Positions 9,370 to 64,000 of a stretch of 64,000 bases of DNA are shown here, one piece after another (within the stretch, counting starts at the first letter, position 1; each line of letters starts with the position of its first letter). The position numbers and the translations under genes were made by a program. Location: positions 10,540,001-10,604,000 of the forward strand of contig CM119385.1 of NCBI GenBank assembly GCA_051294905.1, given 5' to 3'. This stretch comes from Botryllus schlosseri (taxonomy: Eukaryota). A model generated the notes under the pieces. The model saw nothing but the letters and a program-made list of their open reading frames with translations. It was not told the DNA's origin and did not search any database.

Positions 9370-9392
9370 ATCTGAAGTCCGCGTATTATCAA

Positions 9393-10382: not shown

Positions 10383-10387
10383 ATCGC

Positions 10388-11485
10388 ATACACGACACTC
10401 TGGGTCATCCAGGAGTCACAAGGCTGCATCATTTCGTTCGTTCGAAAAATCTCTCGTTCTCCCTAAATGACGTCCGTGAGACCTGCGCTCGTTGCCGCAT
10501 TTGTGCTCAAATCAAACCAAATTTTTACAAATGCAATCCGCAAGTGCTTGTGAAAGCAACGAAACCTTGGGAAAGAATCAACGTAGACTTCAAAGGGCCT
10601 TTGAAATCTAACAAATCCCCTTTCATGTTCGTTGTCATAGACGAATATAGTCGTTTTCCGTTCGCCTTTCCATGTCGCAACACTTCCGCGCTAACCGTCG
10701 TTTCGTGTTTGTCGACACTATTCGCTGTTTTTGGACTTCTGGGATACGTTCACAGTGACCGAGGCACCGCTTTCGTGTCCAAGGAAGTCAAGGATTATTT
10801 ACATTCTCGCGGGGTTGCAACTAGCTTCACTACGCCTTACCACCCAACAGGAAATTCGCAGTGCGAACGCCTTAATCGAACATTATGACGAACTATCAAA
10901 CTCATTTTGAAATCAACCGGAGTCTCAGAATCATGTTGGGCTGACGCCCTTCCTCATGCGCTACATTCAGTTCGATCGCTACTTTGCACGTCAACTAATT
11001 CAACACCGCATGACCGATTTTTTTCCTTTCCAAGAAAAAGTATGGTGGGGAATAGCGTGCCATCCTGGCTATTGACACCGGGGCCAGTTTTCTTACGCAA
11101 ATTCGTCAGAAACAAGGGCGACGAACTATGTTCTGAGGTCGAACTTATTGAAGCCAACCCGACTTACGCACGTGTTCGTTTTCCTAACGGCCGCGAGTCC
11201 AACGTCTCACTCAACGATTTGGCCCGTTTTCCTACTGGAGAAGAAACACCGTCGACTAATCCTGAAACGAAACAAGCTGAACCTTGTTCTGTTGATATCG
11301 ATGGCCACGAGCCAAGTCGCGAAGTTTCTAACGTTGAGTTGAAGTCATCTGATGAAGAGCCTCAAGAATCTAACCATTCAGAGGATGTACCAGATGATTC
11401 GAGTAGAAATCTAGACGTCGAGCTTCGGCGTTCAACTAGAGTTAGGCGCCAGCCGGATCGGTATGGTAATTTTGTTAGTCATTGA
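10388..11485 (+). pseudogene. pol: Element 1 integrase with frameshift and internal stop
   Basis: Contains the HHCC region (HDTLGHPG...CRIC), VDFKGP, HSDRG, YHPTGNSQCE and C-terminal LRRSTRVRRQPDRYG. An in-frame TGA at 10886-10888 replaces a Trp codon. Confidence 0.92.
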
Positions 11486-11537
11486 TATTTTTGTGTCATT
11501 TTTATATGTGAATTTACAAAATGCAAGGGGGGTAGAA

Positions 11538-11740
11538 TGTGGTGATCCGCAATTAGGCAATAATTACTTTTCTCTGATTAGTTACGTTGTACAGTACAGT
11601 GTCGCCTTATCGTTATCGTGTCATTCTATTCTCTTCTGTTCTGCTGTCAGTTGTGTTCTATGTTGCTTAAAGCCACATTGGTTACCTTTGCTTTAATAAA
11701 GCTTCCGTTAGTTATTCAACGCAATAGTCAGTTTACGACA
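11538..11740 (+). repeat. 3' LTR of element 1
   Basis: Direct repeat of 7594-7796, about 94.6% identical by manual count. Confidence 0.95.
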
Positions 11741-11885
11741 AAGTGTTAGTATGTGAACGCGGTTATTGTTGGTATTTGAATCGCCGTCTACGCCGGCTCT
11801 GTGGCAAACTAATTACCAAAATATTACCAAGCAAGTGATTCCTAGATTTAGCAAACTATTTCACACCCTTTTTTGCTAAAAGTAC

Positions 11886-29400: not shown

Positions 29401-32400
29401 AGATGTGGTGATTGTTGTGATTGTATAAGTGCTGATTACTGTAATTAGTTTACTTTGCTCTGTTCATTCCTTTCGTACCTCAGTTGCTTATATCTGTGTT
29501 GTCGAGTGCATGTCCTAGTTCCGTGAAGTTGATTGTAGCTGAATTTCAGTTAATAAAAACCTAGAAAGCTGTCAAGCAGTTTCGTCTTCGTCTACCTACG
29601 CTTTCCTCGAAAGGTCACCACAATTTTATTAACTGCTATTGACACAATCGACTCTGGAATGACTTTCTCTCAAGAGAAGTATATCCGCGTGCCGGTTCTA
29701 GATTTATTACCGAGCTCTCAAGACTCTTCGAAAGTATTCAACCACTGGGACAAAATGTTGTCGAGCTTCATATCGGCTGCAGAGTCTTCTTTGCCATCGA
29801 CCAGCAGCACGGACACTGGACAAGAATCTAGCAGTGGCCGTCCCGGGGCAGTTCTCGATAAGTTGGCTATTTTGATTGGTTATGTATCGCCAAGCGTGTA
29901 CGCTTTGATCGAAGATCATGGCACGTTCGAATCTGCCATGGCACACCTAACCAAGTTATATCGGAAGAAAAAGAACATCACATATGCTCGACATTTACTC
30001 GCAACTGCTAAGCAAGACTCTGGTGAGACCGTCGCTGATTTCTCACAAAAGTTGATGGCTCTGTCTCGTGATTGCGATTTTGAAGCTGTTAATGCAGAAG
30101 TGCATAAAATGGAGGCCGTGCGAGATGCCCTAATTACTGGCTTGCGGTCCTCTGGCATTAGATTGCGTCTTCTCGAACATGATGAGTTGACACTCGAAAA
30201 AGCCATGCAGATAGCAGACTCTCTTGAACGGGCGCAAGCGTTTTCCTCGTCCTATGAAATATCGCCTCCTACCGCTAACATGGTTCCGGGAAATCAGGAA
30301 ATGCAGAAGACTTCACATACGCCTGACCAATCGCCTGTGTTGTCCTGCAGCTCTGAATTGGCTGCATTACAGAAGTCTCCTGAAAAAAAGAAGTGCTTAT
30401 TTTGCGGCGGTTTCCATACGATGCTTCGCAAGTTTTGTCCAGCCCGAAACAGCGAATGCTCGAGATGTGGCCGACGGGGTCACTTTGCCAAAGTCTGCAA
30501 ATTCAATTTGGCTTCGCTAGCCGGTGTACCCGGTTCTTTGAGGCGTTCGTTCGACGTTGGAAGTTTTTGTTGCTGAGAGATTGGTCAAAGTACTTGTAGA
30601 TTCGGGGGCGTACGAATGCTACATTAGATCATCATTCGCCAAAATTCTCAATCTCGCTCTTACTCCTCGGGATTACACTATTACCCTTGCATCAAAGTCA
30701 TCTTCTGCTCGAGTTATTGGTCATACATACGCGACACTTCGCATTGAAGATAAAGATTACGGCGCAACTCAATTTTGCGTCGTTGATGAACTGTGCGCCG
30801 ACGTAATCATCGGTTTGGAATTCCTCCAACAGCATAAGCGAGTTATATTTGAATTTGGTGGGCCTAAGGGAGATCTCGTATTAGGACGCAAGCATTGTGT
30901 CGTAGCTGCCGCTAAAGTGAGTGATCCGCCTGAAATATTCAAGTTTGTCGACCCAGCTGTAAAGCTTGTAGCTGTGAAGTCGAGAAAGTACAGCTCGGAG
31001 GATCGATCTTTTGTACGGAGCGAGGTGTCAAAGCTCCTGGATGAAGGCGTTATAGAGAAGTCGGTATCTCCCTGGCGAGCTCAAGTTTTGGTAACCAAGG
31101 ACCCTCGACATAAGAAAAGGTTAGTGATTGATTACTCGCGGACGATAAATCGATACACCCCTTTGGATGCTTGTCCGCTACCAAAAATTGATGACATTGT
31201 CAATGAAGTTGCAAAAGGTGTTGTTTATAGCACGATCGATCTCAAGTCTGCCTATCACCAGGTGTCTCTCTCTGCGGCCGACCGACCCTTCACAGCTTTT
31301 GAAGCTGATGGTTGTCTGTATCAATTTCGTCGCCTACCCTTCGGCATCACCAATGGGGTCGCTGCATTTCAGCGGTTCATTGATAAATTTATAGCGGACA
31401 ACCACTTGAAAGGCACAATCGCTTACTTGGATAATGTAACTATATACGGAAGGAATCAGAAGGAGCACAATGAGAGGCTCTCTTCGTTCATGTCCGCCGC
31501 TGATTCAACAGGTCTGACTCTAAATAAAAATAAATGTGCGTTTGGGGTTTCGAAGCTCTCACTGCTCGGCCATCTGATCTCCCACAATGATATTCGACCC
31601 GATCCGGATCATTTGCGACCCTTAACGCAAATGCCGGCTCCAAGCGATACTCGTAGTCTGAAGCGCTGTTTGGGCATGTTTTCGTACTATTCAAAATGGA
31701 TTCCGTCTTTTTCCGATAAAGTGAAGCCCCTATGTGAAAATGTCGTGTTCCCCTTGCTTGAAAAACAGAGAAACGCGTTTGAAACGGTAAAACAGAATCT
31801 ACTTCGCGCCTTTTTGAGCTGCATCTATGATGACGAACCGTTTCAAGTTGAATGCGATGCTTCCGAAGTTGCGATCGCCTCTATTTTAAGCCAAAAGGGC
31901 AGGCCTGTTGCGTTCATGTCTCGAACGCTATCAAAATGCGAAATGAAATACCCCGCTGTAGAAAAGGAAGCTTTGGCCATTGTCGAGTCTCTTCGAAATG
32001 AATTTAAATTGATAACGGACCAAAAGGCATTATCTTTCATATTTAGAAAAGACCATCCAAGTAAGATTAAAAATGCAAAGCTCACTCTGTGGAAACTCGA
32101 GTTAAGTCCGCTAAAGTATCAAATAATTCACCGCCCTGGATCCGAGAATATCGGACCTAATACTCTGTCTCGGGTTTGTTGTTCGTCCCCAGGCCAGCCA
32201 CACATGAGCCTTCAAGAGATCCATGAAGCGCTGAGTCACCCTGGGATTCGACGACTTGATCACTTTGTCCGATCCAAGAATCTACCTTTTTCTATGGAGG
32301 ACGTTAAAAGAACTTGCGCTAATTGTCAATTATGTGCTAAATTGAAACCTCGGTTTTTCATGTCTAATGAAACGAACAAGTTGATAAAAGCTACTCGACC

Positions 32401-35400
32401 ATGAGAACGTATTAGCATCGATTTCAAAGGTCCCGTTGATGGACCCAGAAAGTTTGTACTTGTTATTATTGACGAGTACAGTCGCTTCCCATTTGCTTAT
32501 CCTTGTCGCGACATGACGTCGTCAACGGTCGTCAATTGTCTCTCATCCTTGTTTTCGCTTGTCGGTGTACCGGAATATGTACACAGTGACAGGGGTGCCT
32601 CATTTCTATCTAAGGAAATCACCGATTTCTTGACACGCAAGCGTATTGCCACCAGCAAGTCGACTCCTTATCACCCCACAGGCAATTCGCAATGCGAGAG
32701 GCTTAATCAGACTTTGTGGAAATCCGTCAAGTTGCTTTTGGAAAGTCAGAGATTGCCGGAGATACATTGGGAATCGGTTTTGCCGGATGCTCTTCATTCC
32801 ATCCGGTCGCTCTTATGCACGGCATCTAATTGTTCTCCTCATGACAGGTTCTTCAAGTTTGAAAGGAGATCCATGTTGGGCGACTCCATCCCCGACTGGC
32901 TTCTTCATGGCGGCACTGTACTTCTACGAAATTTTGTGCGGAACAAAGGCGACCCCCTCGTTAATGAGGTAGAACTATTGGATGCCAACCCTAAATACGC
33001 CTTAATACGTTACAGAAACGGCGTAGAATCAACGGTTTCCGTTAAAGATCTCGCACCCTACCCTGTTTCTACAAAGTCTTCTGAGGCGCTTGAAAGAAAG
33101 GAAAAAGAGTTTTCCTCTGTCTGCGATACAACGGAGCCGTCTTCCGATGAACTTACCACCTCGTCCAGCAGCGAAAAAGATGGCGTTGCTTGTAAAACAT
33201 GTTCTCCGCGTCGCGACGAAGTAGTGGAGCCCAGTAGCAGCGCAGATGTCGAGGAACCTCCACTGCGTCGATCCACGCGCATAAGGCGCGCTCCCGAACG
33301 TTACGGGCAAGGGACCTCGTAAAAGCCTGTCCCTATTTTTCTTGGTGGGGGTGAATGTGGTGATTGTTGTGATTTTATAAGTGCTGATTACTGTAATTAG
33401 TTTACTTTGCTCTGTTCATTCCTTTCGTACCTCAGTTGCTTATATCTGTGTTGTCGAGTGCATGTCCTAGTTCCGTGAAGTTGATTGTAGCTGAATTTCA
33501 GTTCATAAAAACCTAGAAAGCTGTCAAGCAGTTTCGTCTTCGTCTACCTACGCTTTCCTCGAAAGGTCACCACACTAGATGTTTCCATTTATAGGTAATT
33601 TTTATCTTTGACCTGAAGTAAAACCTCCCGATGCCTCGCGTATACTCTGGTCGTATTAGAGATGAGGAATTCTGCGGCCAGGATCCATGTTTTAGTAAAT
33701 AACCGGAAGTGAGCTATTACATTTCACTGAGAACTGTCGCATGATCAGCTCTGTCATTACTAATTATGATGTTATAGCGCAAATCTGATAAATGAACTTC
33801 TTGATATGCATTGTAAAACAGCAGACTGATTTCAGATGACGATCGATACTAACAGTAACCCAACCCTGTCTCGCGGTTACAAATTGCACCCAGTTAGCTG
33901 CTACGCAGCGCCCGATGGAAGCAAAAATAGTCTACAGCAATACACACTCATAGAAAACGGGTAAGTTGCAATAAAAGCTTTATTAGTTTCTATAACAGGG
34001 GCGGCCAACCCGCGACCTACGAGAAGGTTTTGAGTGGCCCGCGATGTAATTCTCGAAATTAGTTATAATAATAATAAAAAATTACTCAGGCAATTAATTT
34101 ATTGAACTTGCAAGATCAACTAAAAATGTCATTAGCGAACTCTGGAATGCTGATGACTAAAATATCAGTTCCGACGCATTGGTGTAGCCAGTGGCCATCC
34201 ACATTTTTCGGGGATCTTCGTATATGACAGATACGACCACAAAGCAGAATATTTCGCGGCCGATTTATTTGACTTGATATTTTTCTTAGCATTTCGAGCG
34301 ATTTATTGTCACTCGATTTCTTGATTTTAGCATTGGGGCCCCCTCCTGATATTTTAAAACTAGAAATACGCCCAATTTACGGAATTGACTCTAACTATAT
34401 TCGCAATCGTGAGAGAACGTGTCGTCTAACACGCAACTTCGCGTCTGCACTCGCAGAATGATCTTCGGCGATGACACCGTTGCACAAAATGATAGACGCA
34501 TATTCACTGAAATCTTGATATTGATAATATTGATAATATTGATAATATTGATAATATTGATATGTCCAAGCGCCAGTTATTTACCCTGGTCAACAGAATG
34601 AAAAAAACCATCTAGGAGTCGTTTCTGGGGTTTTCAAGGTTGCTGATTACGAATATCCAGCCGTAGATTGGCTCTAGAAAAGAAGACACTTATACCCATA
34701 AAAAAGCCCAAAATCCCTTGAAAATTTCAGTTGGTAGGAGGTAAATCTTAGATTTTTCTACTTTCATACTGCGCATAAATACATAATTGACTAGGAACCC
34801 GCATGTCGTTCTCAGTTATTCCATCAATATTAACATTAACGAGAACTTTGCTTGTAGAAAAAGCAGTTTATCAAGCCTAGAAATTGTACTTTTGCACAGC
34901 GGAAATATGTTTTCTCTAGTGCCAATTGGTCATTCTACCAAGATGAAAGTGGAGTGTAATGCTATCACATTTGTCCCTGGGAAATCTAACTAAAGTACTT
35001 ATATGAGTCTCATCTATTATGACTTGTAAATGGATAATTTTTCGCTGAGCCAACAAAGTGAGTGTACCTAGTCTCTATATCAAACGAGTAGCTTAAATCT
35101 GGTATCTTTGATGGACATCAGATTCGAATACGGATGAAGGATTCCAATTTCATATTAAGAAAGGTGCTCACTGAATGGAATCCCATTTAGGATAATAGTA
35201 AATAAAAACTTTTTGGAAGATCACAAAGCACCCAGCCACAAACAGCTGGTCCAAAAATTGGTATCTGCATATGGAAACCTTGGAGCAAACATGAGCATTA
35301 AATCTCAGTTCCTGATCAGTCACCTTGATATATTACCTGATAATATTGTTGATTAGAGGGAATAGAAAGGGGAAAGGTTTCATCAATACATCAAAACAAC

Positions 35401-48830: not shown

Positions 48831-51218
48831 GTTCGCATATGTACTGTGGGGCTCAGATTGCTAAGGGCACTACATTAAAATATATCACGTTAAATCGCGA
48901 AAATCGCGAAGAAAATTTCAAGAATAATTGAAATCGGGAGTCAATTCGTAAATTCAATTTGTTCGTCGACGGCCGCCAGCACATACTTGTTGAATAACGC
49001 GACGGCCGCACAAATTTCCTGCTATACGGCCGCATGGTGGCCACCCCTGTGTAGGCATACTGCGTTAAAACACTGATGTGACGTTCTAATACATGCAATT
49101 CACCCATTACTACCAAGACATACAGTCAGATTTAAAATGCGATTATTCAAGTGTGACTGAAACAAGAAATATATGAGGGTATATCCTTATCAATTGAAAT
49201 CCGATTTCTGTCAAATGCGCAATTAGCTGGAATTTGATGTTTATGCATATGTTACCAGTATGTCCAGCGGCGATGAAGTTAAGTAGAATATAGAAGATTT
49301 CCATTCAAACGAATCGATTAAAATCAGAATTTTGCTGCCGAGAAGCTAATGCAATTCAACGCCTTACACTGCACAGTTGTAGCATTTCCCGATCAACGTT
49401 TGCAAAGCCCTGTTGTATAACTATTATCCGCATCAATGAATTGCAATTCGCAATAACACACTGTCCAATTTCGAACTCCAATTAAAAAGGCTGGCACGGG
49501 TAATATTATTTTCTTTATGGCTCACTCGCCACTTGGACTGCTTTAGGAGTCATTTTCTTGAGCGAAGCGGTGATAGTAGCCAGCTTATTTTTTGTTTTTG
49601 TCGGGCAGTTCATTTATTGTTTATATACTGAAGTATTTGTACTATCTGGATATTTCCAGCAATTTTTCAACGGTATTTTAATAAGATATTCGTCCACTTG
49701 GTCGTATTGTTTCGTACCTGTTGGGAAGGGAAAGCCAGAGTCAGCCTATACTGCAATCACTTCCTTCATATGTCTCTACTTGGAGACGACAAAGACTAAC
49801 ACGAAAATCATTCACGAATATAATTTAGCGAAGAGGAATGTGAACTTGCTCGTCCGATGGAGAGATGAGATGGTGTTTCCCAGAGCACTCGGGTTGAAAT
49901 CGACGTTTCTATCGAGATGACATCGCTTGCCTGATTACGAATTACTGATTACAAATTAGTGATGTACATTAGTACATCTAAAATGGTCGGCAGTTTTGTC
50001 AGATGAGCATCAGTGCCTTCTGCGAAAGACATAGTGATAATTTTTTTTTTCGAACCACAGAATGGAATTGGTTTTATGTGTGCGACACAGATTTTATGTG
50101 CGCGCAGACTGTGTCACGCGCGCAGCTTAGAGTGAACCCTGAACATTGGTCAGGAGCCTGGTTTAGTTGAACATGAACATTAACATCTAATCGACCGACG
50201 GCCACCAACGGTCGACTAGTCTAATTCAATCGAATTCTCTATCTATAGCAAAGTTATGTATAAGTCGCAAGTAACGTGGTATATTCGGTGATCGTATAAA
50301 CCGTGCACTTCTCCATCTTGGCAACGAATGTCTGCCAATTCTTCCATGACGCATCTATAGAACACCGGTATACTGCAATTAGTCATAGATTGGTCGCTTC
50401 TGAATGACCTATCGCAAATTTACATCTGTCGATTGCAGTGGAGCATACCTACCACGGCGTTTTCCTGGTTTCCTGAGAATCAAGTATCGAAAACGGTGGA
50501 AACTTCATATTGCACTATGATCGCATAAATTTCAGCAAAGGTGAAATTTAGAAATCGGTAATCACACACGCATTACGTCCGCAGTCATTTTGCTCTCATG
50601 TGAAACATTAAACGGCCTTGTCATCACTGTACTGTGCGTGCGGTGAGGTACAGATTACCATTATGCACAATACACATGTTGCACTGCTCCAGGGGTCACA
50701 CATTTTCATTTCAGGATGAGCCGATGTCAACAAACAAACTTCGCTGTTTTATACTCTTGTCCCAGTACCCTATCGTGTGCCGAGCCGCCACTTGATAATA
50801 CCCCGTCCTACACGTTGAGTCCTTTCTATCGTTATTTTCATTTAAGTTATTTTCTATTTGGCATGGATGAAACATTAAATATATATATTATATAAATATA
50901 TAATTTCGAGAATTCGAATCATTGCTTGCGAGATAATAGAAAGCCGGGGCATTTGATACTTGTATTGTATGCCCCGATCCGACCATTTCCACAAAAACTC
51001 GGGGAAATCTCATGCGCAATGACCATTTGTGTTGAACGGCAGTCGGCATGTACGAATACGAAGGCTGCGTAGTGCGTAGTCACTATAGGAGTATAGGTCT
51101 ACCGTCTTTTTTCTTGCGATTTCCAGAAAAAAAGTTTCAAATATCCTCTATTTAGGCCTAATACTTTGCCATTGCGCGTCAAAGCTCAGCTTTTGTTTCA
51201 GGATTTGTTCTGGACATT

Positions 51219-54200
51219 ATGGCATCGATTGGCATACTTCTTGCTACGTTGATGTTCCTTGTCTCCGACATTTCGGCAGTGTCTTATAGCCTAAAAGGTT
51301 TGTCAACCTCAATCGTTCTTATCGTATTTGTCTCGTCGAAATGTAGGCCATATCAGGGATATCTAGAAGGACTTGTTTTAGATGTCCCTGGCCTATATAC
51401 ATTGTACAATGTACAACCTCAGGTTGCCTGTTCGCTCTCGCAAGAGTAAACTTCATTGGACATTGATTATCGACCTGTTTGGTTAGGTGGACTCCTTAGG
51501 CCTATATTCAGACCGAAATTCCTCCTAGGAAAGAGCTACCCGATGACTAACAATAAGATCACATTTCCCGTTTGCGCGCGTCTGCTTCAAAGGTCTAGGA
51601 TAGGCTACGCGTGTGACTCTGTGTTGCCCAATTCTCCCCTAGGTCCGAAGCCGTTGGTTCCACGTTAAAGTTCCCCTAAAATAGGCATCCACCTACTAAG
51701 AACTTATATAATGATAGTCGATGACGATAATTGGGTGCAAATGAGCTGATGCTTTGTCTAACTAAATTGTAACTACATAATGACCATTTGCTATCGGCCC
51801 CTCTGTGACCATTGTTCATCCCAATGCAATTTCATTCATTCCAATATTTATCTGAGGGTTCATAACTAACATTTGTTACCAATTCCAGGCGGTAGACAAG
51901 AAGTCGTTTTGAAAAGGTAAGTATACAGTACATACTTTTAAACGTAGCGGTACCTGAAATTGACGTTCCTATTCGACATACCTAACGCTAACAGCGAACG
52001 CTCGTTGACTTACGCAACGCACCCGTCGGTTATGAACTTGTTGGATAAAGATGAATGTTTCATGCTTTCACACCATTCCGCCATGCTTAACTATAGATGG
52101 TGTCAAGATCACCAATTCGAATAAGCATGGCCACGTCAGACCTCATAACTATATCTGGAGAATTGCTAACGGAGAATAAGAACTTGTTGAGGTATGCGAT
52201 AGGGATAGCGTATATAGATCTGCCGATGATGACCTATCAAACGGAGAATTAATTATCTATATGTTGAAGGCGCGTAGAGGTAACGAAATTGTGGCGACCA
52301 AGAGATGTATAACTAATTCACGGACAAAAGTAGTGAAAACCAAAGTAGATGTCAGTATCTGGGACGGATTGCTGGTGTACTGGCACAAAACAGTTCCAGT
52401 CACGTAGATTGGCGCGAGAAATGACCGCCTATGTATCAGACCATAAGCATGAGTGAGCCCACTTATGTATTTATTAGGGATGTTGTGAACGTGAGGTTCA
52501 CGTTCGCGTTCTGTGTGTGAACCTCAGAAGCTTATAGGTTCACGTTTACAAACGAACCTTGGTAGGTTCTGCACTATGAACCTTATCATATATTACAATT
52601 TTCACTTCATTGTAACATATTTGGTTGAAGTTTATTGCACTGGCAGCTGCGGGCCATTATATGAATGGCGATGGAAGCATAAACAAATCAACACTAAACG
52701 AGCATACATCTTGACAATGTCAAAACTTTTACTTGCTTTTTTGTAAAAGTTTGCTCGCATATTTAGTGACTCTCTGCTGTGACCTTGACCCGCAAACACA
52801 CAACATCAAAAGCGAAATACACTGCATGTATGTAGTCAGCGAATGATGCTTATTCAACCAATCAATGAAATCGATATCGTTGTCTGATGTAAAAACTGTC
52901 TCAGGCGTACAGGGTCAATCGTGATTTCATATGTTTATTGTATCATAAAAACAAAATCCGTGCGATTAGGGTGCTACAGCTGTATAGCTTGTCAATGGGG
53001 TATAATATCGGTACCAAGTATAGAAACCCGTTTTGCACTCTGCTCAATATCAACGTAGCAATACTCATTAGTCAGACACCTAATACATTCTCCGGTCTGG
53101 CCTAGACCGTTAGGGCGTAAGCTTATATTCCCTTGCTAGTCCTCGTCGATATTGTTGGCAACGCGACGGAGGTTATTGGTTTTATGGGATTATTATATAT
53201 CATTTGATTGCCCTAGTTGATGCATTTGTTGACGTTTAAAACGCCAATATGTACTTCAGCATTGTAGCATTATGAGGCCCGAGTCATCGCTAGGTAGCCT
53301 ATCGTGTAAATTAACATGGGCTCCACTTCACTGAAATGTAGGGTTGGAATTAGCATTTTGACGTCACGTGATGTCATGAGGTTCACGTTCGCGTTCACAC
53401 AGAACCTTTCAAAAAGTTTCGCGTTCACACGAACCTGAACCTTTCGGAGGTTCACACCATTCCTAGTATTTATCCAGTGACAAATGAAGAAGTATATTGC
53501 TATGAAAGATATCGGGTCGACTGCTTCACGATCACAACATCATTTTGGCGCCACTTATCCACGCGCCCGGTTAGAATTCGTTCTTTCTGCGGGATGTAAA
53601 TCTATAGTTTGGAGCTGAAAAAAATAGACATTTTAAATTGATTGATCTTTTGCTTTGCAGTAATAGTACATCGAACGAGAAAAAGACTGCTTTAGCAATA
53701 AAAGGTGATGCTGTGGTCCTGAAATGCGTATTTGAAGTTTATGGATGGTCGACAATCCAATGGTAAGCTACGACATACGGTCAAAATTACTGTCGTATAA
53801 TTGTGGTCCATTTCACCTATACAGGGTAAAGTTCACACGTGAAGACGTATCAGAAACCGTACTTCCAGATCGTATGGTTAATTCTACTGGTGGGAGCGTT
53901 TCAATAGCCACTCTACAGAACATCACGGAATCAGACGAAGGGAATTATAGCTGCATACTAACAACTCTTAGAAGTGGTTCGCTTTCATACAGCTTTGAAC
54001 TCGCGGTTAAAGGTAACCTCATATTCTTGTGCATGTAATTTTGTGGAAAATATGGTAGCTTATTTCATTTTCTTCCATGTGATGGTCCGTGGTAAATGCA
54101 GGGTTGTGCTTACAACTAAAATGCATTTAAAAGAAAGATGTTTAAATAGGGCACTTGTTTGAAACATTGAAGCTGAAACATCTAAAATTACAATATTTGG

Positions 54201-54943
54201 CTCATTTGAATGCATGTACAGTACGGTACACCAAATAGAATGTTCCAAAGTTGTGGGGTATTCAAGAAATATTTACTTGTTCATTGTGACCAACTCAGGA
54301 CTTGGTTAATGGTTACAAACCTTGACCTGCCTTCTCCCCATCCCTCAGCAAAGAGACTCGGCTAGCGTTAGTTCATATATGTGTCTATTACACTGACATA
54401 AATTTCATCAAGCATAATTCTCGGTTTCCTGATAGAACGTGAGTGATGGAATTGCTGTCAAACCGACGGCGCTGGGGTTATAGATTTGTTAACTATGAAG
54501 CAGTCTCTAAAATTGTGAACTGAAGTTGATTATTGTTTATATCAAGTCACGATTAACTTTCCGACAGATTAAAAATATGCGCCACCCGTTTGGTCTGGTG
54601 CGAAGCGAGATTATTATAATACATGAGGTCATGGGCTGACGAAACGCCATCGTATTTATTCCATATTCAACATGTGATACTTGCAGGAAAGTCATGGTGT
54701 GATGAATCTACCTGCTCAGGCAACGGAACCTGCGTGGAAGCAATCGACGGGTAAGTTATCATCCTTCCATTGATTGCATTTCATATCATTTCCCACGAGA
54801 CTTGTTCAGATATAATTGTGTCTGTGATCCTGGATTCGTTGGTACTCATTGCGAACACGTAGATCCATGCTTAAATTCACCCTGTCTGAACCGTGGAACC
54901 TGTAGCGTAGATGGAGGTGACTTCAACTGCACCTGCATCACAG
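51219..54943 (+). CDS. Gene C (5' part): signal peptide, Ig domain and first two EGF modules; paralog of gene B
   Basis: Exons 51219-51297, 51889-51916, 53661-53762, 53825-54012, 54687-54750 and 54810-54943 have the same phases as gene B, with identical 102- and 64-nt exon lengths. Motifs GDAVVLKCVF...W and DEGNYSC. The next exon was not found in the window. Confidence 0.88.
52475..53465. mobile_element. hAT-type non-autonomous element
   Basis: Ends are TAGGGATG.TGTGAAC/GTTCACACCATTCCTA with GTTCAC subterminal repeats and a perfect TSD GTATTTAT. Confidence 0.9.
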
Positions 54944-55399
54944 GTAGGATACACATCAGAGATGATGATGTGGCTCGTATTCAGAAGCGCGCTGTTTGCC
55001 TGGCTTTCCGGAGATGGTCACTAACGAATGCTTCTACTCACGTAGGATTTTGACCTCTAGCACTCACGTAAATATGCTTTCAGACTTCATCCACTTAATT
55101 CAACGGCAGTATGTAATAGGACCATAGGAATAGAAATAGAACGCTGTTTATCTCTGCCCTTGGTGTTTTTGCGGCATATACGATATGTAGAAATGCATAC
55201 CATGAGTGCATGATGTGCATATACCGCTGCACAAGGAAGATGCAGAAATAGCCTGGTACGGTCTTGCACCACTCCGCCATGCTATCCCTGTAAGGCAGTG
55301 GTTCCCAACCTGTGGTACGCGTAGGTCTTCCAGGTGGTACGCGAGTAGATTCTGTTTTTTTCGACCGAAGGGACTTACTAGTTCAGGTGACGTTGATTT

Positions 55400-55618
55400 T
55401 TGAGTTTTTTGAAGCCGTCGTCTCACGCTATTTCCCAGCTGCTAATTTTCCGTTATACGTGGGAATGCGAGCAAGGATTTTCATCCCTGATGACTATCAA
55501 GTCGAAGAAACGGAACCGACTTGTTGCGCCCATACATGACTTTCGATGCGCTGTAAGCAAACGTATGCCACGCATCGACAAGCTAGTGGAAAATAAACAA
55601 ATGCAGCCATCGCATTAA
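55400..55618 (+). pseudogene. hAT transposase C-terminal dimerisation-domain remnant
   Basis: CEQGFSSLMTIKSKKRNRL...PRIDKLVENKQMQPSH* matches the Charlie/Buster-type C-terminus. Confidence 0.88.
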
Positions 55619-55731
55619 ATAAATTGACTTTTGTTGTGTGTTTTTATTTCATTATGTTGTTCTTCTTGTGACTGGTGGTGAAAAAAACAATTCCATACAT
55701 CCCATCAACCCGGCTGATATAATGCCTAGTT

Positions 55732-56999
55732 CAGGGGTGTCAAACTCAAATTGCATCACGGGCCGGATCGAAGTCATGAAATCTCTCGTGGGCAGGACCA
55801 GTCAACGGAATCCAAAATGTTGCTCGTGCCATTTCTTCTCGCTGGAATACTTTATTATCAAGCATACGGATCGTAGGGGTTTTATTCTAGCGAGTCGCAA
55901 CACCAATATTTGCGAGCAATGAAATTGGCGAAAATACGATGTTTGTCCGGTTGAATACAGTTAAGAACCACTAAAACAATGGCATTACCAGCGATACAAG
56001 TAGACATATTTCAGTGTTCCCTTTGCTTTATTCCAGGGGTGGCCAACCTGCGACCGTAAGAGGGAATTTGTGCGGCCGTAGACACGCAATTCAATTAGTA
56101 TGTGTTGGCGGCCGTCGACATGCAAGTCGAATTTACGAATTGACTTCCTATTTCTTGAAAGATTTTAATTAATCTTGAAATTTTCTTCGCGCTGCGCGCG
56201 ATTCAATGCAACCACATTTTCGACTTTAATATAGTAACACCCTTTGCAATCACAGCCCCACAATACAGATGCGAACATCAGTGCAAATGATGCGCCTCAC
56301 ATGGAAATATCAGATCGGAATCGTTTTCTCCTCACTATACCAACAATCCTGATCGGAGGTCAAGAAATCACAGCATGCTACAAAGTGACTAATACCAATT
56401 GGCCCACCCGAAGATGCATCATAATTTGTAACTTGCTTTAGATTTTTGAAAACATCCCTACAACAACTCTCACCAGTTTATCTGATCACACGGGATGAGA
56501 CAGGATGTTTTATGGTATTATGTAAGACTACCAATATCAATGACGAAATTCATCGGTGAATCTGAAGTTTTTTCGCGCTTCGCGCGACTATGAGCACTTC
56601 CTTCCTTCACATTACCAGTGACCACTCGCGATTTTGGTGCGCATAGTAAGCCTATCATTAAATAGATTAGTCCGGAGTTCACCAGAAATGGACATAGACA
56701 CTTCCTGGGTATTTGGCGTCCAGCTCGTTCATTACGACTATGCCCTACAATGCGGCAGAGTAGTCGAAATGCGGCCGTAAATGGCAAAACGGTTGGCCAC
56801 CCCTGCGTTAGTCATAATCTGGTGTTAGGCCCTGCGTATGCGTTGTTATGAATACAAGATATTCAACTATCAACGCGGACGTTGTAATTTGGTTTATTAC
56901 TGTGGATGTGATGGATAATATAATCTTATTTCAATGTACTCAGAATTGCTATGCGGGCCGGATAAAATCGTCCGGCGGGCCGTATGTTTGACATCCCTG
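55732..56999. mobile_element. hAT MITE nested in 55296-57158
   Basis: TIRs are CAGGGGTGTCAAAC/GTTTGACATCCCTG with a perfect TSD GCCTAGTT. Confidence 0.9.
56034..56805. mobile_element. hAT MITE nested in 55732-56999
   Basis: TIR CAGGGGTGGCCAACC at both ends; TSD CTTTATTC/CGTTAGTC (6/8). Confidence 0.85.
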
Positions 57000-57667
57000 G
57001 CCTAGTTTAATAGAATTTGTTAATACACCTCGCATAGGTCAAATACGTGAGTATGACGTCATAAATAGTGGAAACGCACGTAACGTATATAGGTGGTACG
57101 CGAGCACTGCATAAAACCTCAAAATGGTACGTGGATGGAAAAAGGTTGGGAACCACTGCTGTAAGGCTAAGCGCCAAGCGGAGAAGACATGGATATTGGA
57201 TATCATGACCTACCGATGAAAAATCCGGACGCACCACCATTACTTTAAATATATTTTGGATAGGTTTGCATCACTTCTACTAGTGAAGTTGTCGAAACAA
57301 CCGGGTAAAATAGGCTTTAGATGTGGACAAAGTATCCAGCATTGTTACTCGGGTAACATTAGAAGTATTTCCAAAAATTTATACTCAACTACAAGTATAG
57401 AAGTAGTAATTTCCAATGAAAAATACCTCAAGTAGAATTATAGAAAGCGAAAGTTATGAAAAGTACTCTCGAGTAATTTCAAAAGGTGGATTAAGTCGAG
57501 GCTCCGTTTGCTTTTACCATAGTCGATCGGAGGTTAACTTGATATTTACACGGAACAATGTATGCATCGTTAATATGTCATGCTTGCTGTGTTAACGACG
57601 AAAGGTTCGACTGCGCACAAGTTTCATTATTTTATAATTTATGTGCTTTCATCATCCCTATATAGCG

Positions 57668-58281
57668 CAGGGGTGGCCAACCTGCGATCGTATAGCAGAA
57701 AATTTGTGCGGCCGTCGATACGTAATTCAATTAGTATGTGTTGACAACCGTCGACATGCAAATTGAATTTACGAATTGACTCCGGAATTTTGGAGTGATT
57801 TTAATATAGTAGCGCCCTTTGCGATATGATCCCACAGTACAGATGCGAACAGCTGAGAATATTATGCGCCCCAAAAAGAAATACTAACTTGGAATCGTGT
57901 GGTCCTCACGAAATAAATTTATTTCTGGTGCGTTTGGGTGATTCCAATATTTTTCCACTATACTGCCAATCCTGATGGGAGGTGAAGAAATATGAGCATG
58001 CAACAAAGTGACTAACAACAATTGGCTCACCCGAAGATGCATCATATCATTTATAACTTTCCCCTAAATTTTCGAAAACACTCCCTCCATCAACTCTACC
58101 GGTGAATCTGATCACATGGGTTGAGAAAGGATAAATATTTGATAGTAATATGTGAATAAACTATACTTATATTAATGACGAAATTGATTTGTGAATCTGA
58201 AAAAATTTTCGCGCTTTACGCGACCGTCACGGATCCCATTACACGACCACTCGCGATTTCGGTGCGTATAGTAAGCCAACA
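57668..58281 (+). mobile_element. Second copy of the 56034 MITE family, interrupted by element 3
   Basis: Collinear with 56034-56660 up to ...ATAGTAAGCC, where similarity stops abruptly. Confidence 0.85.
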
Positions 58282-58438
58282 TGAAAAGAAGGGAACTAGT
58301 GAAGTATATGCCCGCTTTACTCGTGTGTATGTTTGACGTCATCTAACATGATTCCCCATGATCATTTAATTCAATTTCCTTATTCTATCCTTTTAATCTC
58401 TTTTTTCTTCTCGTTCTCTCGTTTTTCTCGAACGAGTC

Positions 58439-58513: not shown

Positions 58514-58927
58514 TTACACTCTGCTAAAAACAGCTTTACATCTTTTGTATAACTGTGGGTGGTATAGGGCCTTCGCACAACACCACTTCTCTTGTACGTT
58601 TGATTGCAGCAGTACGAGTCCCTCATTCCTTAGATCTGCTGCCTTCATGCAAATTACCACATTCCGCTTTTTGCTTTTCTTCGTTATCGTTTTGCTCAAA
58701 TGAATGAATCTCCTGTTCATTCGTTTATTGCTTGCGAACATTATCTGTCTTGCATTGTTTTCAGTCGTCATGTGGTACAATATCTCGTTGCCTTTATATT
58801 TACAGTGCGGAGGGGGCAACCCTTTTGTATGTCCATGTGCAGCCGCCAAACCATAGTTTGAGACTATTACTCTATCGCACCTTTTCATGACGTTCTTGAT
58901 TTCTTCAATTCTCATTTGCAACCCCAT
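58514..58927 (-). CDS. Integrase-like ORF lacking catalytic acidic residues
   Basis: IKNVMKRCDR, GHTKGLPPP and ALYHPQ lie at roughly integrase spacing (C to YHP is 105 aa here versus about 115 in element 2). Confidence 0.45.
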   Translation of the reverse strand: MGLQMRIEEIKNVMKRCDRVIVSNYGLAAAHGHTKGLPPPHCKYKGNEILYHMTTENNARQIMFASNKRMNRRFIHLSKTITKKSKKRNVVICMKAADLRNEGLVLLQSNVQEKWCCAKALYHPQLYKRCKAVFSRV

Positions 58928-59326
58928 TTTTTTATGACGCCGTAAATTCCTTCCCAGGGATGATATCCATCCACTGAGTCATTACAAAGATCATGGCGAC
59001 AATGAGACTCTTGAGTTCCGTCTCAACGCTAGGACTGGTCCCTTGTTGTGGTAACTTGGCCAGCCATTGGCCAATGTGAATCTCGTGATGAACGGGGTTT
59101 TGTTGTTGGTGGAGAGAGGGCGAGGTCCTTCGATGTAGGCCTCTGATCTCGGTGCGTGCCCGCACCTACCGTCACGCCGACGAACTCCTTTTCCGCCGGG
59201 GACCCTTTTTCTGGGGAGACGTGCATCCTAAAATCCCCAGACTCCTTGTCGGACATGACCAGGTGTGTATCCGGTTGACCGGCAATCGCTGCTTCGTTTG
59301 AACCTTTTGGGAAAGTACTCATTACT

Positions 59327-59600
59327 GTGGCTGTCGTCATGCATCTATGGGCCGATTCATTAAGGTTATTCGGACAAGTGCATCCACGAAAGCATTTAGG
59401 ACCAGTTTTCTCATGCAGGTCTTTATTTTCGCCAGCGGACATTCTTCGTTCGATGTCAGCTGTGGCAGTCGCCATGCATCTATGGGCCGGATTTTTTACA
59501 GTTATCCGGACAAGTGCATCCGCAAAAGCCTTCGGGACCAGTTTTCTCGTGCAGGTCCTTATTTACGCCAGCGGGGATTCAACGCTCGACGTCTTCATTA
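59327..59600 (-). repeat. ~132-bp tandem duplication encoding a 44-aa Cys-containing repeat
   Basis: Two copies: NKDLHEKTGPEGFCGCTCPDN and NKDLHEKTGPKCFRGCTCPNN. Confidence 0.85.
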
Positions 59601-59852
59601 ACGGTGTTAGCAGGCATTCCTGTCTCAACACCAATAGTTTCCCATGGGTTCTGTGTGACGTTAGTTGCTATTTTCAACTCGTCGTTCGCACCAGTGGTGA
59701 TTACCATCTCGGTACTTGCGCCAGCGGCAACGTCCAGCGGCGACGGCCAGCGTGCCGGCTCGACGCTTATTTGATTTGCAGCTTCCATCAACCCCATCAT
59801 CGGTTACAGTGTCGCGAGGACTGCTTCCGACTTTGGTTCCGTCCCGTTTATC

Positions 59853-60260
59853 TCATGAGATCCCATCACGTAGAGTTACTAAAGACAACTCTTCAATCGC
59901 ATTAGACGGTGTTTTCAACCCAATTACTATTCTTGGTAATAGCTGTACTTGTTCAATCCATTTCAACCCTATGATATTAAGTGGAGCTCCTAATCCGGTC
60001 ACAAATGGAACGGACAGACCATCAAAATTAATCTCTACGAAGGAGTCCACTTGGGACGAGCCACCTATTCCAGTCAATTCCATGTCTATTGGTTGACGTT
60101 CTTCCCAGCTTTGTGGGTATTTAGTAATAACGACCTTTTTTTCATTATCAAATTGAGGATGCTTCCCGTGTCAGCTAGGAATTTCGAACCCGTTATTGTA
60201 TCAATCAAATACAACAATTGGCCTCCGAACAATTCCGTAAATCGGGCTGTAATGGGTCAT
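59853..60260 (-). pseudogene. Retroviral-type aspartic protease, frameshifted
   Basis: LLYLIDTITGSKFLADTGS (DTGS at 60161-60172), a frameshift at an A7 run, then flap LTGIGG and C-terminal NIIGLKWI. Confidence 0.8.
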
Positions 60261-60359
60261 CCGGCGTATCAAGAAATGTAAATAAGGGTAAAGAAGAGTT
60301 ATGTACAGTTTTTGTGTGTTGCGGTAATAAATTATCTGGGAGCTGATTTACCGGATCAA

Positions 60360-61658
60360 TCAGCTCCCGCAAGCGATCGAGAGTCGAATACCTTGATTCA
60401 GTTCATCATCCGTCCAATCTGAAGCATCATATCGACGTGGATGATCAGGGTATTGAGGTTCCGCCCAAGCCACTTGGCTATTACCTCGGGACGAGTGTGC
60501 AGGCGGTAAAGATGACTTTGTGTCACGCACTTCCTTTGTTTCCTGGTTCCTAGGGCACGTCTCTTGTTCATCCAGAAACTCGGAGTTCCAAACAAATTGT
60601 AGCTCCTCCGCAACGTCCCGCCAGGTTTTCTCTTCTTCCCAGCCTCGTAACATCAGTCTGAGCGCTTCTGGAAGTCGTTGTCGTAAATTTCGGAAAAGAC
60701 GCAATCCATCCGGATTATCCTCAATAAGACTATCCATGTCTATTTCTAGTTGTTTCAAAGCGCTATTCAGCAGAGGTAGCGGCTCATCCGCCCAGCGATA
60801 ATTTCTGCGGAAATCCCCAATGATCTTTTCATCATTTACCAAACCCTGGGGGTTGGATAAGGAAAGGGATCGCATCACCGATTCCCATTCTGCTTCCCCC
60901 GAATTGGTATTAAAAAAATTTCCCAGTTGGATAGCCTGCTTGTGTCTGCCAGCCGCCCGCAATTTCTTCTGCATCGCATTAGCCAAAATAACATCAGCAT
61001 CTGTATTCCCGGGACCGTGACGTATTCGTCGCATCGAATTTTCCATCCACTTTAATAGTGGCATGTCTCCAGGATCCATCATTAGCTGAAGCATTTCTTT
61101 TTCTGATTGGATTTTAATGGGTACATTAATCATTGGAACCGTAACTCCAGGATATTGGTGTAGCTTTTGTCGCCCTGGTCTTACCCCATACTCCTTCGGC
61201 GTAGATGTAAAACGAGGCATATTTGGATAGTCCGGTATGTCCAGCCGGTCCTCGTCCGAACTTTCTTCCGAGGTATCTTTGGAATTTCGAAGAGACTGTC
61301 CAGTCCTTTTTATTTCTTGAGCCAATTTTCGCATCATAGTATCGTAATAGTCCTCCTCAGCGTCGTCCGCATCTTCTCTAGTATCACCCTGTTCTCGGTA
61401 GGTCACCCGTCGGGATTCGCCATCCGCACTTCTCGCTCGTCTTCGAGAATCCTTCTCCTCGTTACGACGTTCCTGCCATCCTCGATACCCCATATACTTA
61501 TCTAAGGGACTCTTTTTTGGTTTCGACGCAACGGGGGGCTCGCTCCCCCCAAGTCTGATGAGGCTTGGCATTTCCGCGGGGTTTTGCTTTTTCTGTTTGG
61601 TGCGTGCTCCACTTTCCACATGGAAACATGGTGTTGTTCCCCTGCCAGAATCTGACAA
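60360..61658 (-). CDS. Gag/capsid-like ORF (432 aa)
   Basis: A long intact ORF directly upstream of the protease, with a charged disordered N-half and helical, Trp-containing C-half. No zinc knuckle. The capsid call rests on position and composition. Confidence 0.6.
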   Translation of the reverse strand: MSDSGRGTTPCFHVESGARTKQKKQNPAEMPSLIRLGGSEPPVASKPKKSPLDKYMGYRGWQERRNEEKDSRRRARSADGESRRVTYREQGDTREDADDAEEDYYDTMMRKLAQEIKRTGQSLRNSKDTSEESSDEDRLDIPDYPNMPRFTSTPKEYGVRPGRQKLHQYPGVTVPMINVPIKIQSEKEMLQLMMDPGDMPLLKWMENSMRRIRHGPGNTDADVILANAMQKKLRAAGRHKQAIQLGNFFNTNSGEAEWESVMRSLSLSNPQGLVNDEKIIGDFRRNYRWADEPLPLLNSALKQLEIDMDSLIEDNPDGLRLFRNLRQRLPEALRLMLRGWEEEKTWRDVAEELQFVWNSEFLDEQETCPRNQETKEVRDTKSSLPPAHSSRGNSQVAWAEPQYPDHPRRYDASDWTDDELNQGIRLSIACGS

Positions 61659-62205
61659 CGCAGTCGAGTGGTAGCTTAGGATAGACGGCCGTTACAGTAT
61701 GACAATCCAGACCCTTGCGAACCGTCATTGTGGGTCCTTGTTTTACGTCCCCAGACGGCAGTTCAGCGAGAGGAGCGTAAGCCGGAGGATCATATTCTGG
61801 TGCATCTGGCGATACTGTCAAAACGGGAGGTTGGATTCTATCTCGCGTAGCCTGTGCATGCGACTTTCCGAGCTCAAACTCTGACGTAAGAATGTCATTC
61901 AGCACGTCGGTGGATACCTTCCCGCTAACTTTTGTTGTGGCATCACAAACAGCTTTGAGGTCTGCTTGAGCTTTTCGAACCTCTTTCTTTGCCTTCTCCA
62001 GACCCTTCATAGTTTCTGGTAAAGCTGTCTTCACCTCTTTTAATAGTTCCGTTTGTTCAGCCACATCTTTAGCAAGTTGTCTTTCTTGTCTCCGAACGTC
62101 TTCATGGCGTTTTTGTGTTGCTCTAAGCAGGGTAATGCCCTGTTTAAGTTCATTTGTCGCTTCTGGCGACTTTTTCCTTTTAAATGCTTTCAATATTCTT
62201 CGCAT
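61498..62205 (-). CDS. Coiled-coil, matrix-like ORF with PPxY and YPxL motifs (235 aa)
   Basis: Basic N-terminus MRRILKAFKRKKS, a heptad-rich segment, PPAY at 61777-61788 and YPKL at 61672-61683. Overlaps the next ORF by 161 nt. Confidence 0.65.
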   Translation of the reverse strand: MRRILKAFKRKKSPEATNELKQGITLLRATQKRHEDVRRQERQLAKDVAEQTELLKEVKTALPETMKGLEKAKKEVRKAQADLKAVCDATTKVSGKVSTDVLNDILTSEFELGKSHAQATRDRIQPPVLTVSPDAPEYDPPAYAPLAELPSGDVKQGPTMTVRKGLDCHTVTAVYPKLPLDCVVRFWQGNNTMFPCGKWSTHQTEKAKPRGNAKPHQTWGERAPRCVETKKESLR

Positions 62206-62213: not shown

Positions 62214-62480
62214 CTATTGACTGGAGGAAGTACTGTTGACAAATATTAGATCAGGTGAGGATGCGTTGAAAAAGACTGTAGGTCCATGTGGCGTATTCGT
62301 GGGTTGGACGTAAGCAGTGGATTCGTTGCTGTTAGATCCCAAAAATACGTTCAACAGATTAGAAAACGCTCCAGGCGATACGTGCAGATAAATTGCTGCC
62401 AATATGATCAGGAGGGATACAGACGATGAAAGCAAGGATACGACAAGTACAAGTTTTACGATGGTCGTCTTAGAAAGCAT
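62214..62480 (-). CDS. Small single-pass membrane glycoprotein ORF (88 aa from the ATG at 62480)
   Basis: A hydrophobic run of about 24 aa (IVKLVLVVSLLSSSVSLLIILAAIY) is followed by three sequons (NES, NAS, NST). The stop lies 8 nt before the next ATG. Confidence 0.6.
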   Translation of the reverse strand: MLSKTTIVKLVLVVSLLSSSVSLLIILAAIYLHVSPGAFSNLLNVFLGSNSNESTAYVQPTNTPHGPTVFFNASSPDLIFVNSTSSSQ

Positions 62481-64000
62481 CGATTGGTCAACGTCTGAGC
62501 ACCGGAAGTTCCCCGTACTGGCCACCAATTTAGTTTTTATAGTGCAGCTCCACAACGATTGTTATGCGAGTAGTCCACACTTGTTCGGGTTACTTCCTAG
62601 TAAAGCGTTGCCTTTCGTTTGCTTTAGTATCCTGACGACGTCTGTAAATGGTGATTGGAGCAACAACAGTTGTAGGATTGTTTCTTCTCAAGTTGACAAT
62701 GACCCTGGGGTCCAGAATTTTAATCTACCTTTATCTACTGATAATCTAGAAGCTTAATACAACCAAATACTCCAATTAGTTAATTGCGCAGACGGAAATG
62801 TGGTAACTCTATGCAAAGCTTGGTTAAAATTGGCATACACATCATCCATCAATTATAACACAAGGCATGGTTTAACCTATACGTCATCATACACAATTAA
62901 CAAACATTTTCAATACTCCAAGGTTTGTTTACGCATATAATTGATGCGACGGCCTTTCCTGCCGAAAAGCAGCTCCAATCAATACAATCATCATCACAAT
63001 ACATTACGTTCAATCGTATGTTCAAATACATGCATTGCAATATCTAAATTCATTCACAATATTTCTCATAACAATACACAAGGCAATTGACATTAAGGAC
63101 GTCACATCTTCAGTACAATTATCATTACTATAAGCCTACTAATCGGCCCGTGTGATACTATCCCTAACTGTCAATATTCCTATGATTTGTTCCATTGAGG
63201 TCTTAAAATATTAGCAATCTTTTCTTGTTTTACTTCCAAAATCATATCCTAGTCAAAGGTTGTATCGGGGTTTTATATTTTATAATGTTTATCATTATTT
63301 TTATCAATAACGGTTCGCACCCGAAAATCTAGGATTTTGTTTCCGTTAAACTAGGGGGTGATAATGTCCCTAGGGTCCTGCTTAAAGGTAAGGGCGTAGC
63401 AGTGTATAACGCCTGGCTAATTATATCACAATATCACAAAGCAGCAGTTGCGACGAAATAAACATCAAATAAACCGTGAATCGTGAACCATTAGATTATA
63501 TACCTTGTGCACAGTGTACAACACAATGGGTCCTGACCGTTAATACATAGCGTAGGTCAGTTATAACGCTTTCAAGGGCTAATAAATGCCTGCAGGCGTA
63601 GTACTTGCTAATAAATTACTACAATAACTACCAATTATTCACATATTAATTATCATTAACTCATGCACATATCTAAGACACAAAATGTTAGCGCCATTTT
63701 AAGGCAACCGGATGGTAATAATCAAAGATACAGCAATACAATGCTTCATCACAATAAGGAACGTTGGCGTCACTATGCAATAACGTAACTGGGGAATACC
63801 CATCGCTTATGTAATGACTATCGTGTTCCGTCGTCATGCAGCAGATTGATTTATGCCATCGACCGTCCAACGCATCCTTTCCGATCTCCACCACCATATG
63901 TTCAGAACACGTTTCGCAATTGTACGTTCGAGTACTTAGTCTTGTGCATCTATTTTTCGGACCCGATTTCTTTGACTCCCTTGATCATGAAACAATTCTT

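Follow-up and report, generated by a model that had tools for sequence, protein, structure and literature searches.

A conserved small ORF for a predicted type II membrane glycoprotein precedes gag in a Merlin-ended, probably reverse-transcribing element of Botryllus schlosseri with an env-like gene

Long mobile elements of the tunicate Botryllus schlosseri carry, directly ahead of gag, an 88-codon open reading frame (ORF) that is a real gene, beyond what chance would leave. Taking the evidence jointly, we lean, with modest confidence, towards the reading that this conserved gene encodes an accessory type II membrane glycoprotein produced by leaky scanning ahead of Gag, in an env-bearing element that would proceed through reverse transcription and a DNA circle to Merlin-type integration. 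The starting point was the window, a stretch of 64,000 nucleotides (assembly GCA_051294905.1, contig CM119385.1, positions 10,540,001 to 10,604,000), to which all window coordinates refer (Table 1). The copy within it is an RT-less, env-less deletion derivative of about 16.4 kb, in which both transposases, env, most of the mucin gene, the reverse transcriptase (RT) and RNase H are missing and gag is broken; the gag deletion is common to 11 of 30 copies. The pol linker contains a tandem duplication of 136-nt period (window 59349–59593), which sibling copies also have. Elsewhere the window holds two gypsy-type LTR elements on the plus strand, one (7594–11741) with 204-nt LTRs that are 95% alike and a gag-pol with integrase split by frameshifts or stops, the other (29403–33574) with 220-nt LTRs that are 99% alike and a gag-pol-integrase in three pieces, as well as inverted-repeat (MITE-like) families at 1298–2960, 17033–26995 and 48890–57805.

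Table 1. Features of the element copy in the window (positions within the 64,000-nucleotide stretch)
Feature	Position	Strand	Remark
Target-site duplication, 8 bp	58284..58291		repeated at the left end, beyond the window
Right terminal inverted repeat, Merlin-type	58292..58315		ends CC
C-terminal Tpt1/KptA-like part of pol	58514..59007	minus	
pol remnant, protease and linker, frameshifted	58972..60264	minus	approximately residues 378–949 (RT, RNase H) absent
gag, broken	60360..62205	minus	frameshift; approximately residues 576–900 of the long form (zinc knuckle) missing
Small ORF, 88 aa	62214..62480	minus	predicted type II membrane glycoprotein
Primer-binding site	62510..62527	minus	exact 18-nt complement of host tRNA-Ile(AAT) 3' end plus CCA
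AUG-free leader, spliced-leader copy to primer site	62528..62752	minus	putatively R/U5-like
Copy of the host trans-spliced leader, exact 24 nt	62753..62776	minus	putative 5' end of the element RNA
Non-coding region shared by copies	62777..63414	minus	putatively U3-like
Further internal element sequence	63415..64000	minus	copy continues to its left end at G000:C15:10614643

A preliminary description of the window had reported an 88-residue ORF with a basic N-terminal tail, one helix and three sequons, its stop lying 8 nt before the next ATG. Both statements hold: the frame is found on the minus strand as listed in Table 1, and 8 nt separate its stop from the gag ATG at 62205. A basic 9-residue N-tail with two lysines leads into a single hydrophobic, Ser-striped helix (residues 10–30; mean Kyte-Doolittle hydropathy 2.69), followed by a weakly amphipathic stretch (residues 37–47) and a Ser/Thr-rich, Cys-free C-terminal tail with the sequons NES, NAS and NST at 52, 72 and 82. 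Searching the animal's own genome with the ORF as DNA gave 47 matches among the 40 scored of 103 candidates, and the frame is intact in all 30 copies read (the best 30 of the 47 matches), each with its ATG, 88–89 aa and 2–4 sequons. The protein search of the same genome returned 94 matches, none with an internal stop, in a set that is biased toward intact frames. An antisense ORF of 117 aa (window 62404–62757) was rejected, being open over its full length in 7/30 copies, provided with an ATG in 7/30, and both in 3/30.

Constraint is unevenly distributed along the protein. Pairwise dN/dS values, which come from related and hence non-independent copies, were 0.115 for codons 1–35, 0.20 for codons 36–49 and 0.59 for the remainder, and the same measure gave 0.061 for the start of gag. 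When each variant was counted once, codons 1–49 contained 39 synonymous and 16 non-synonymous changes (p about 1e-10), and the predicted ectodomain (codons 50–78) contained 23 and 54, respectively (p = 0.21), which is near neutral. Judged by these substitution patterns, the N-tail and helix are under purifying selection. The deletion subfamily gave a dN/dS of 0.11 in the helix region and of about 1.0 in the tail. Asn at alignment columns 50, 72 and 83 is invariant in 30/30 copies, and the adjoining column 73 shows five residues. Conservation across copies, which the preliminary description had proposed as a check on its claim, is thus seen in the intact frames, in the low dN/dS of tail and helix, and in the sequon asparagines. 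For the window copy alone, three sequons are no significant excess over shuffled versions of its tail (P = 0.24); nine family representatives together carry 23 sequons against 10.7 expected, a number reached in 0/5000 shuffles, with one of the nine having none. Sequons within about 40 residues of a C-terminus may be poorly used.

The gene extends well beyond close copies. RT matches within this genome span 44 to 100% identity, and we read the DNA upstream of gag at 20 further loci, 13 picked from the RT match list and seven from weak small-ORF matches. A single-helix ORF of 55–127 aa lies directly before gag in 18 of these 20 loci (shortened in one), among them 11 of the 13 chosen by RT match. 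A comparable small membrane ORF is found at this place in families with an RT identity as low as 57%; at the two most distant loci (44% RT identity), neither a gag start nor the small ORF was found. A compact element form of approximately 15 kb has no genes besides transposase, env, mucin, the small ORF, gag and pol, suggesting that it belongs to the core gene set of the element. In all 19 small-ORF sequences compared, hydropathy peaks at 1.86–2.69; the N-tail carries a net positive charge in 18/19, the charges of the 15 positions that follow the helix sum to zero or below in 18/19, and the tail is Ser/Thr-rich, nearly Cys-free and 17–95 residues long. None of the 19 starts with Met-Gly, and several have Cys at position 2. 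By the positive-inside rule and the sequon excess, a type II (N-in/C-out) topology is predicted, so that the topology put forward in the preliminary description stands as a prediction. No relative of the small protein was found within 48–154 residues in a 5.8-billion-protein set, the Atlas gave no usable match, and Pfam gave none below E 0.03 for 16 small-protein members, although blank searches with so short a protein show little. The predicted four-copy fold of residues 1–52 scored 0.07. Since no relative was found outside this genome, the role discussed below rests on analogy.

We next consider how the protein would be made. The preliminary description had it translated first on a polycistronic RNA, and this is supported as likely. 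Downstream of the spliced-leader copy, no AUG comes earlier than that of the small ORF in 20/29 main-family copies and in 4/14 other loci, upstream AUGs preceding it in 9/29 and 10/14, respectively. Position −3 is a pyrimidine at the small-ORF AUG in 14/14 loci and a purine at the gag AUG in 13/14, and nine representatives contain 6 AUGs between the two starts, compared to 36.8 expected. The weak start context and the depletion of internal AUGs fit leaky scanning and speak against a fusion to Gag, and the small protein is likely produced by leaky scanning ahead of Gag. A glyco-Gag-like fusion by frameshifting or readthrough was rejected, the phase being 2, 0 or 1 among copies and families; across 14 loci the spacers between the small ORF and gag measure 6–54 nt and fall in all three phases. 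RNA depth across the small ORF is 0–9, mostly sense in the run with the most reads, and letter differences in these reads suggest sibling copies as their source; a search over sequencing runs listed no RNA run as containing the query.

The small ORF could instead act mainly as an upstream regulatory ORF or result from RNA packaging signals beside the primer site, its peptide being of little importance. It does begin 30–32 nt past the primer-site core, the 100 nt upstream of it are more conserved than synonymous sites, RT-less copies retain it, and its tail varies in length from 17 to 95 residues. We nevertheless regard this explanation as improbable: synonymous sites in codons 1–35 vary freely (dS 0.18) whereas the residues do not, and the helix and the sequon excess outlast the loss of sequence similarity.

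As for function, pneumovirus SH, influenza B NB and the gammaretrovirus glyco-Gag leader are small, glycosylated, single-helix proteins encoded beside a major structural gene; such accessory glycoproteins are expressed by leaky scanning in some cases and occur alongside separate fusion and attachment proteins. The Botryllus protein is alike in plan, with no sequence similarity found and unfused to Gag, and by this analogy its mode of action would be closest to that of such small glycoproteins in enveloped viruses. Translated from one RNA along with Gag, it would reach the budding membrane together with Gag and may serve as an assembly or host-modulating co-factor for the true glycoproteins of fusion and attachment. 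Its putative working parts are the conserved helix and the short cytosolic tail, in which position 2 is often Cys, and the variable glycosylated tail is a candidate trafficking tag or shield. The main rival is a viroporin, in which the Ser-striped helix would oligomerise into an ion-leaking pore of the sort proposed for pneumovirus SH. This fits the single helix with its conserved small polar residues (an S-x-x-S-L pattern), the concentration of conservation in the helix, and a size and predicted type II topology like those of SH; yet no gating residue is conserved across families, with only Met1 invariant and Leu23 nearly so, and the Pfam comparison (16 members, E 0.03) adds no match, such that we consider a pore rather unlikely.

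The preliminary description had favoured a minimal envelope substitute, and this part does not survive the comparison with long copies, which encode a fusion-type env and a mucin-like glycoprotein; the features of sORF2 and FAST proteins are also absent. The closest models would be the sORF2 of Drosophila MDG1-group elements and the reovirus FAST fusogens, to which the small ORF is similar as a short single-helix frame, sORF2 also lying upstream of gag and being of similar size (PMC11952523). In the part of that report drawn on here, sORF2 is described as N-out/C-in, with a Met-Gly myristoylation motif in most members and a polybasic patch after the helix, in env-less elements (PMC11952523). 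The Botryllus frame differs in every one of these respects: Met-Gly starts occur in 0/19 sequences, basic residues stand before rather than after the helix, with no polybasic patch following it, the long, sequon-selected C-tail is the opposite of an N-out/C-in arrangement, and the frame coexists with an env-like gene present in both permuted forms of the family. Retention of the small ORF in env-less deletion copies such as that of the window would favour a fusogen that replaces or backs env, but these copies are without RT too, hence helper-dependent anyway, and we hold this explanation to be very improbable.

The gene content of the element was established from long copies, from which we walked out a unit of 37.7 kb with the order transposase A, env-like, mucin-like, cargo genes, small ORF, gag and pol. 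The env-like protein (838 aa) combines a signal-peptide-like start, a conserved R-x-K-R-F furin site with a hydrophobic peptide behind it, predicted long helices, heptads and a C-terminal anchor, and thereby shows the sequence features of class I fusion proteins (signal peptide, furin site, fusion peptide, heptads, anchor). Its matches to spike heptads were non-significant only, and its fold model has a mean pLDDT of 33.5. The mucin-like membrane protein exceeds 1100 aa. Gag contains a CCHC knuckle as well as the motifs PSAP, PPAY and YPKL, and pol consists of protease-RT-RNase H-Tpt1 with the RT motif YIDD, the protease being assigned from its motif rather than from Pfam and the zinc knuckle scoring slightly below the Pfam threshold. 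Of 75 scored RT matches, most have an open frame. Neither pol nor the four database proteins closest to it showed an rve integrase domain; Tpt1 closes pol, and some 280 nt then remain to the right end of the element. In pol (L034:6615-9998), this Tpt1/KptA RNA 2'-phosphotransferase-like domain occupies the integrase position, and it is common to relatives in other assemblies; a role in RNA or DNA end repair or ADP-ribosylation is possible. The cargo comprises a leucine-rich repeat (LRR) protein, a second transposase, a BIR-RING apoptosis inhibitor, a ubiquitin-conjugating enzyme (E2) and unknowns, and the BIR-RING, E2, LRR protein with hydrophobic start and related small unknown ORFs (L050, L034:1-2300) are typical of large DNA viruses.

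The ends of the element are those of a DNA transposon. They are short, imperfect GG...CC inverted repeats, flanked by perfect 8-bp duplications in 6/6 main-form copies paired end to end (window copy included) and in two further pairs, and RNA reads include the empty form of one insertion site. Both transposases of the long copy are of the IS1595/Merlin type (DDE_Tnp_IS1595, Pfam E 6.5e-18 and 3.1e-10) and have all three DDE motifs. The published account of Merlin and IS1016-IS1595, in the portion consulted, gives GG-starting imperfect inverted repeats, 8- or 9-bp duplications and a DDE_Tnp_IS1595 domain with DDE residues (PMC8101967), and the element agrees with it in ends, 8-bp duplication and DDE transposase. 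It differs from Merlin in its length of 15–40 kb, often two divergent transposases, a full gag-pol-env, a primer site and marks of reverse transcription. No long direct repeat (LTR pair) was found in the stretches compared, and a conventional gypsy LTR element was rejected given the lack of an LTR pair and integrase and the inverted-repeat ends. A cluster of CD20-like four-helix host genes flanks one insertion (L069:1146-2054, L071, L072).

The marks of reverse transcription lie around a copy of the host spliced leader. In three RNA runs, many reads (approximately 2000 in one, 238 in another) fit only 62743–62776, starting right after the template-switch adapter and leaving into many different sequences, as is characteristic of a trans-spliced leader. 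The 24-nt sequence is that of the 'Chordata 1' leader, indicative of a tunicate host; we take this leader to be the stolidobranch type. The match is to the consensus printed in Table 1 of PMC3795323; a G before the leader in 28/46 loci was discounted as a sign of cap copying because that consensus, as printed, itself starts with G. The leader copy occurs in 46 of 53 element loci and is exact in 39 of those 46, the seven loci with no leader match (L030, L091, L096, L102, L105, L106, L107) standing outside the 46-locus leader analysis. It is found once per long copy in the stretches examined, about 250 nt upstream of the tRNA-Ile primer site, and other families have different TGG-starting primer sites. 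The compact copy L107 (3462-4009) lacks both the leader copy and the sequence ahead of the primer site, which itself is kept. The leader followed by GTA occurs at 49 places in the genome, and two of three such loci read continue like the element leader rather than like a leader-RNA gene.

Variation is concentrated at the two borders of this region. Immediately 5' of the leader, 29 copies show 13 different 6-mers, and immediately 3' of the primer site 30 copies show 12; the 17 other leader positions used as controls gave 2–7. For HIV-1, strand-transfer errors at the U3-R junction are documented (PMC12172438, as excerpted). In one copy the leader is joined at the next AG, and a partial second leader is present in two families, which fits what is expected from repeated trans-splicing. 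Junction hypervariability is also present in the RT-less subfamily, suggesting that it is mobilised in trans through RNA. By the account cited, the genomic RNA of the C. elegans element Cer1 avoids trans-splicing (PMC3315495), and a leader serving as the genome 5' end would be the opposite strategy. No polypurine tract was found within 2.5 kb upstream of the leader in 4/8 loci (three main-family loci and L094), and in the others there was none at a shared position. An approximately 57–60 nt repeat near 62900–62985 is present as one unit in the window copy and as 1–4 in other copies. Sense reads pile up at window 62856–63049 (single-cell libraries, depth up to 543), over the short repeat upstream of the leader copy, possibly because a transcript has its 3' end close to the leader. 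In many families, a TAR-like hairpin is also predicted, in which the leader copy pairs with a segment whose end lies about 123 nt from the start of the leader copy (62654–62776, minus strand); the position of the partner in this leader-sequestering hairpin recurs, and single sequences score mostly no better than shuffles.

Gene order provides a further clue to the replication cycle. At seven loci, the transposase A-env-mucin block stands directly after pol, with the right end after mucin. Three of six permuted right ends could be matched to a left end by the same 8-bp duplication, yielding units of 38.2–38.4 kb; left ends for the other three were not found within the DNA fetched. In one permuted copy, a poly(A) run of 40 nt lies within the element about 270 nt from the right end (L113:8900-8960); four sister copies lack it. 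We infer that the two forms are cuts of one circle, although block movement between nested copies could also give the permutation. Read from the leader, such a circle would run small ORF, gag, pol, transposase, env, which is the retroviral order with the transposase at the place of the integrase. Searches for an end-to-end circle junction found none in the genome (exact pattern, main form) and none in four RNA runs, where end depth is about 2.

Together, the exact leader copy, the hypervariable junctions and the permuted forms point to a one-LTR DNA circle integrated by the transposase. In the cycle we propose, the RNA would start with the host spliced leader, a tRNA would prime at the primer site, and the strong-stop DNA would end at the leader and jump to the RNA 3' end. 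A one-LTR circle of the order leader-sORF-gag-pol-transposase-env-mucin-cargo would result, which the transposase would open at the inverted-repeat junction and insert with an 8-bp duplication. The competing account is a cut-and-paste Merlin transposon that carries a captured retro-module as cargo, or two separate RNAs, with neither a genome-length RNA nor a circle. It draws on ends and duplications that are plain Merlin, on the joined-end junction missing from the genome and from the four RNA runs (at an end depth of about 2), and on the sense reads of single-cell libraries that accumulate immediately ahead of the leader copy, as would fit a transcript that terminates at that place. Cut-and-paste alone, however, leaves unexplained an exact leader amid diverging flanks, variable letters confined to two reverse-transcription junctions, family-specific primer sites and the permuted order, and the RT frames are open in most of the 75 scored matches. 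We therefore see it as a doubtful though real contender. On balance, we somewhat favour the combined reading that the element represents a new class of enveloped reverse-transcribing tunicate virus, with an RNA capped by the trans-spliced leader, which would be rewritten each cycle as a terminal repeat, a one-LTR circle of up to 40 kb that a Merlin/IS1595 transposase would insert and re-excise, and the small glycoprotein as a third, lineage-wide envelope protein.

Relatives of pol are found elsewhere. Four database proteins with 38–46% identity are RT-RNase H proteins without an integrase domain, three of them with Tpt1, and a full-library search gave more such RT-RNase H relatives. In a quick RT tree of 87 rows, which is preliminary, uses 60 of 138 distant matches and contains no labelled reference RTs, the relatives form one long-branch clade (SH-aLRT 99). 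The gag and pol genes of a relative are present on one marine metagenome contig of 4.7 kb, which ends short of the small-ORF position; viral contigs searched for the database relative P0002 yielded nothing. The best solved-structure match of the RT region is chain 8r0s, 'Enzymatic polyprotein', which is presumably caulimoviral. Caulimoviruses, as pararetroviruses, have protease-RT-RNase H without integrase, tRNA priming and circular DNA; the present element, with its proposed circle, differs from them in its animal host, envelope genes, precise and putatively transposase-mediated integration and putative spliced-leader 5' end.

Comparison with other known systems gave partial likenesses. With Metaviridae and Retroviridae, the element shares gag with a zinc knuckle, protease, RT, RNase H and a tRNA primer site, but it has neither paired LTRs nor an rve integrase. 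Env-carrying Ty3/gypsy elements, as presented in the section cited (PMC13524379), share gag, protease, RT, RNase H, env and the tRNA primer site, whereas theirs are combined with paired LTRs and an integrase and pol here ends in Tpt1. Kuafuorterviruses likewise share gag, protease, RT, RNase H and a tRNA primer site, and were rejected as a match since those described in the cited part (PMC11673190) have LTRs, an integrase and xADD, in contrast to YIDD and the lack of an LTR pair and integrase here. Teratorn, a piggyBac-alloherpesvirus combination, similarly has virus-like genes integrated by a cut-and-paste transposase between inverted repeats, and its excision and circularisation have been proposed (PMC10175614, in the part cited); here, the virus part is reverse-transcribing and the transposase Merlin-type. 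The element fits no family tested, showing a Teratorn-like logic and a pararetrovirus-like inferred circle. A search of the openly accessible literature found no description of such an element type; the supplements of PMC13524379 and PMC11673190 could list such elements.

The small ORF by itself would be a further example of a small membrane accessory protein before gag. If the proposed cycle is true, the element would break the rule that tRNA-primed, envelope-bearing retroelements integrate via an rve integrase at LTR ends, and its cycle would bring together pararetrovirus-like circles, DNA transposition and trans-splicing. Given the RT-RNase H proteins without integrase in other public assemblies, most of those checked ending in Tpt1, annotation based on LTR pairs likely misses this lineage.
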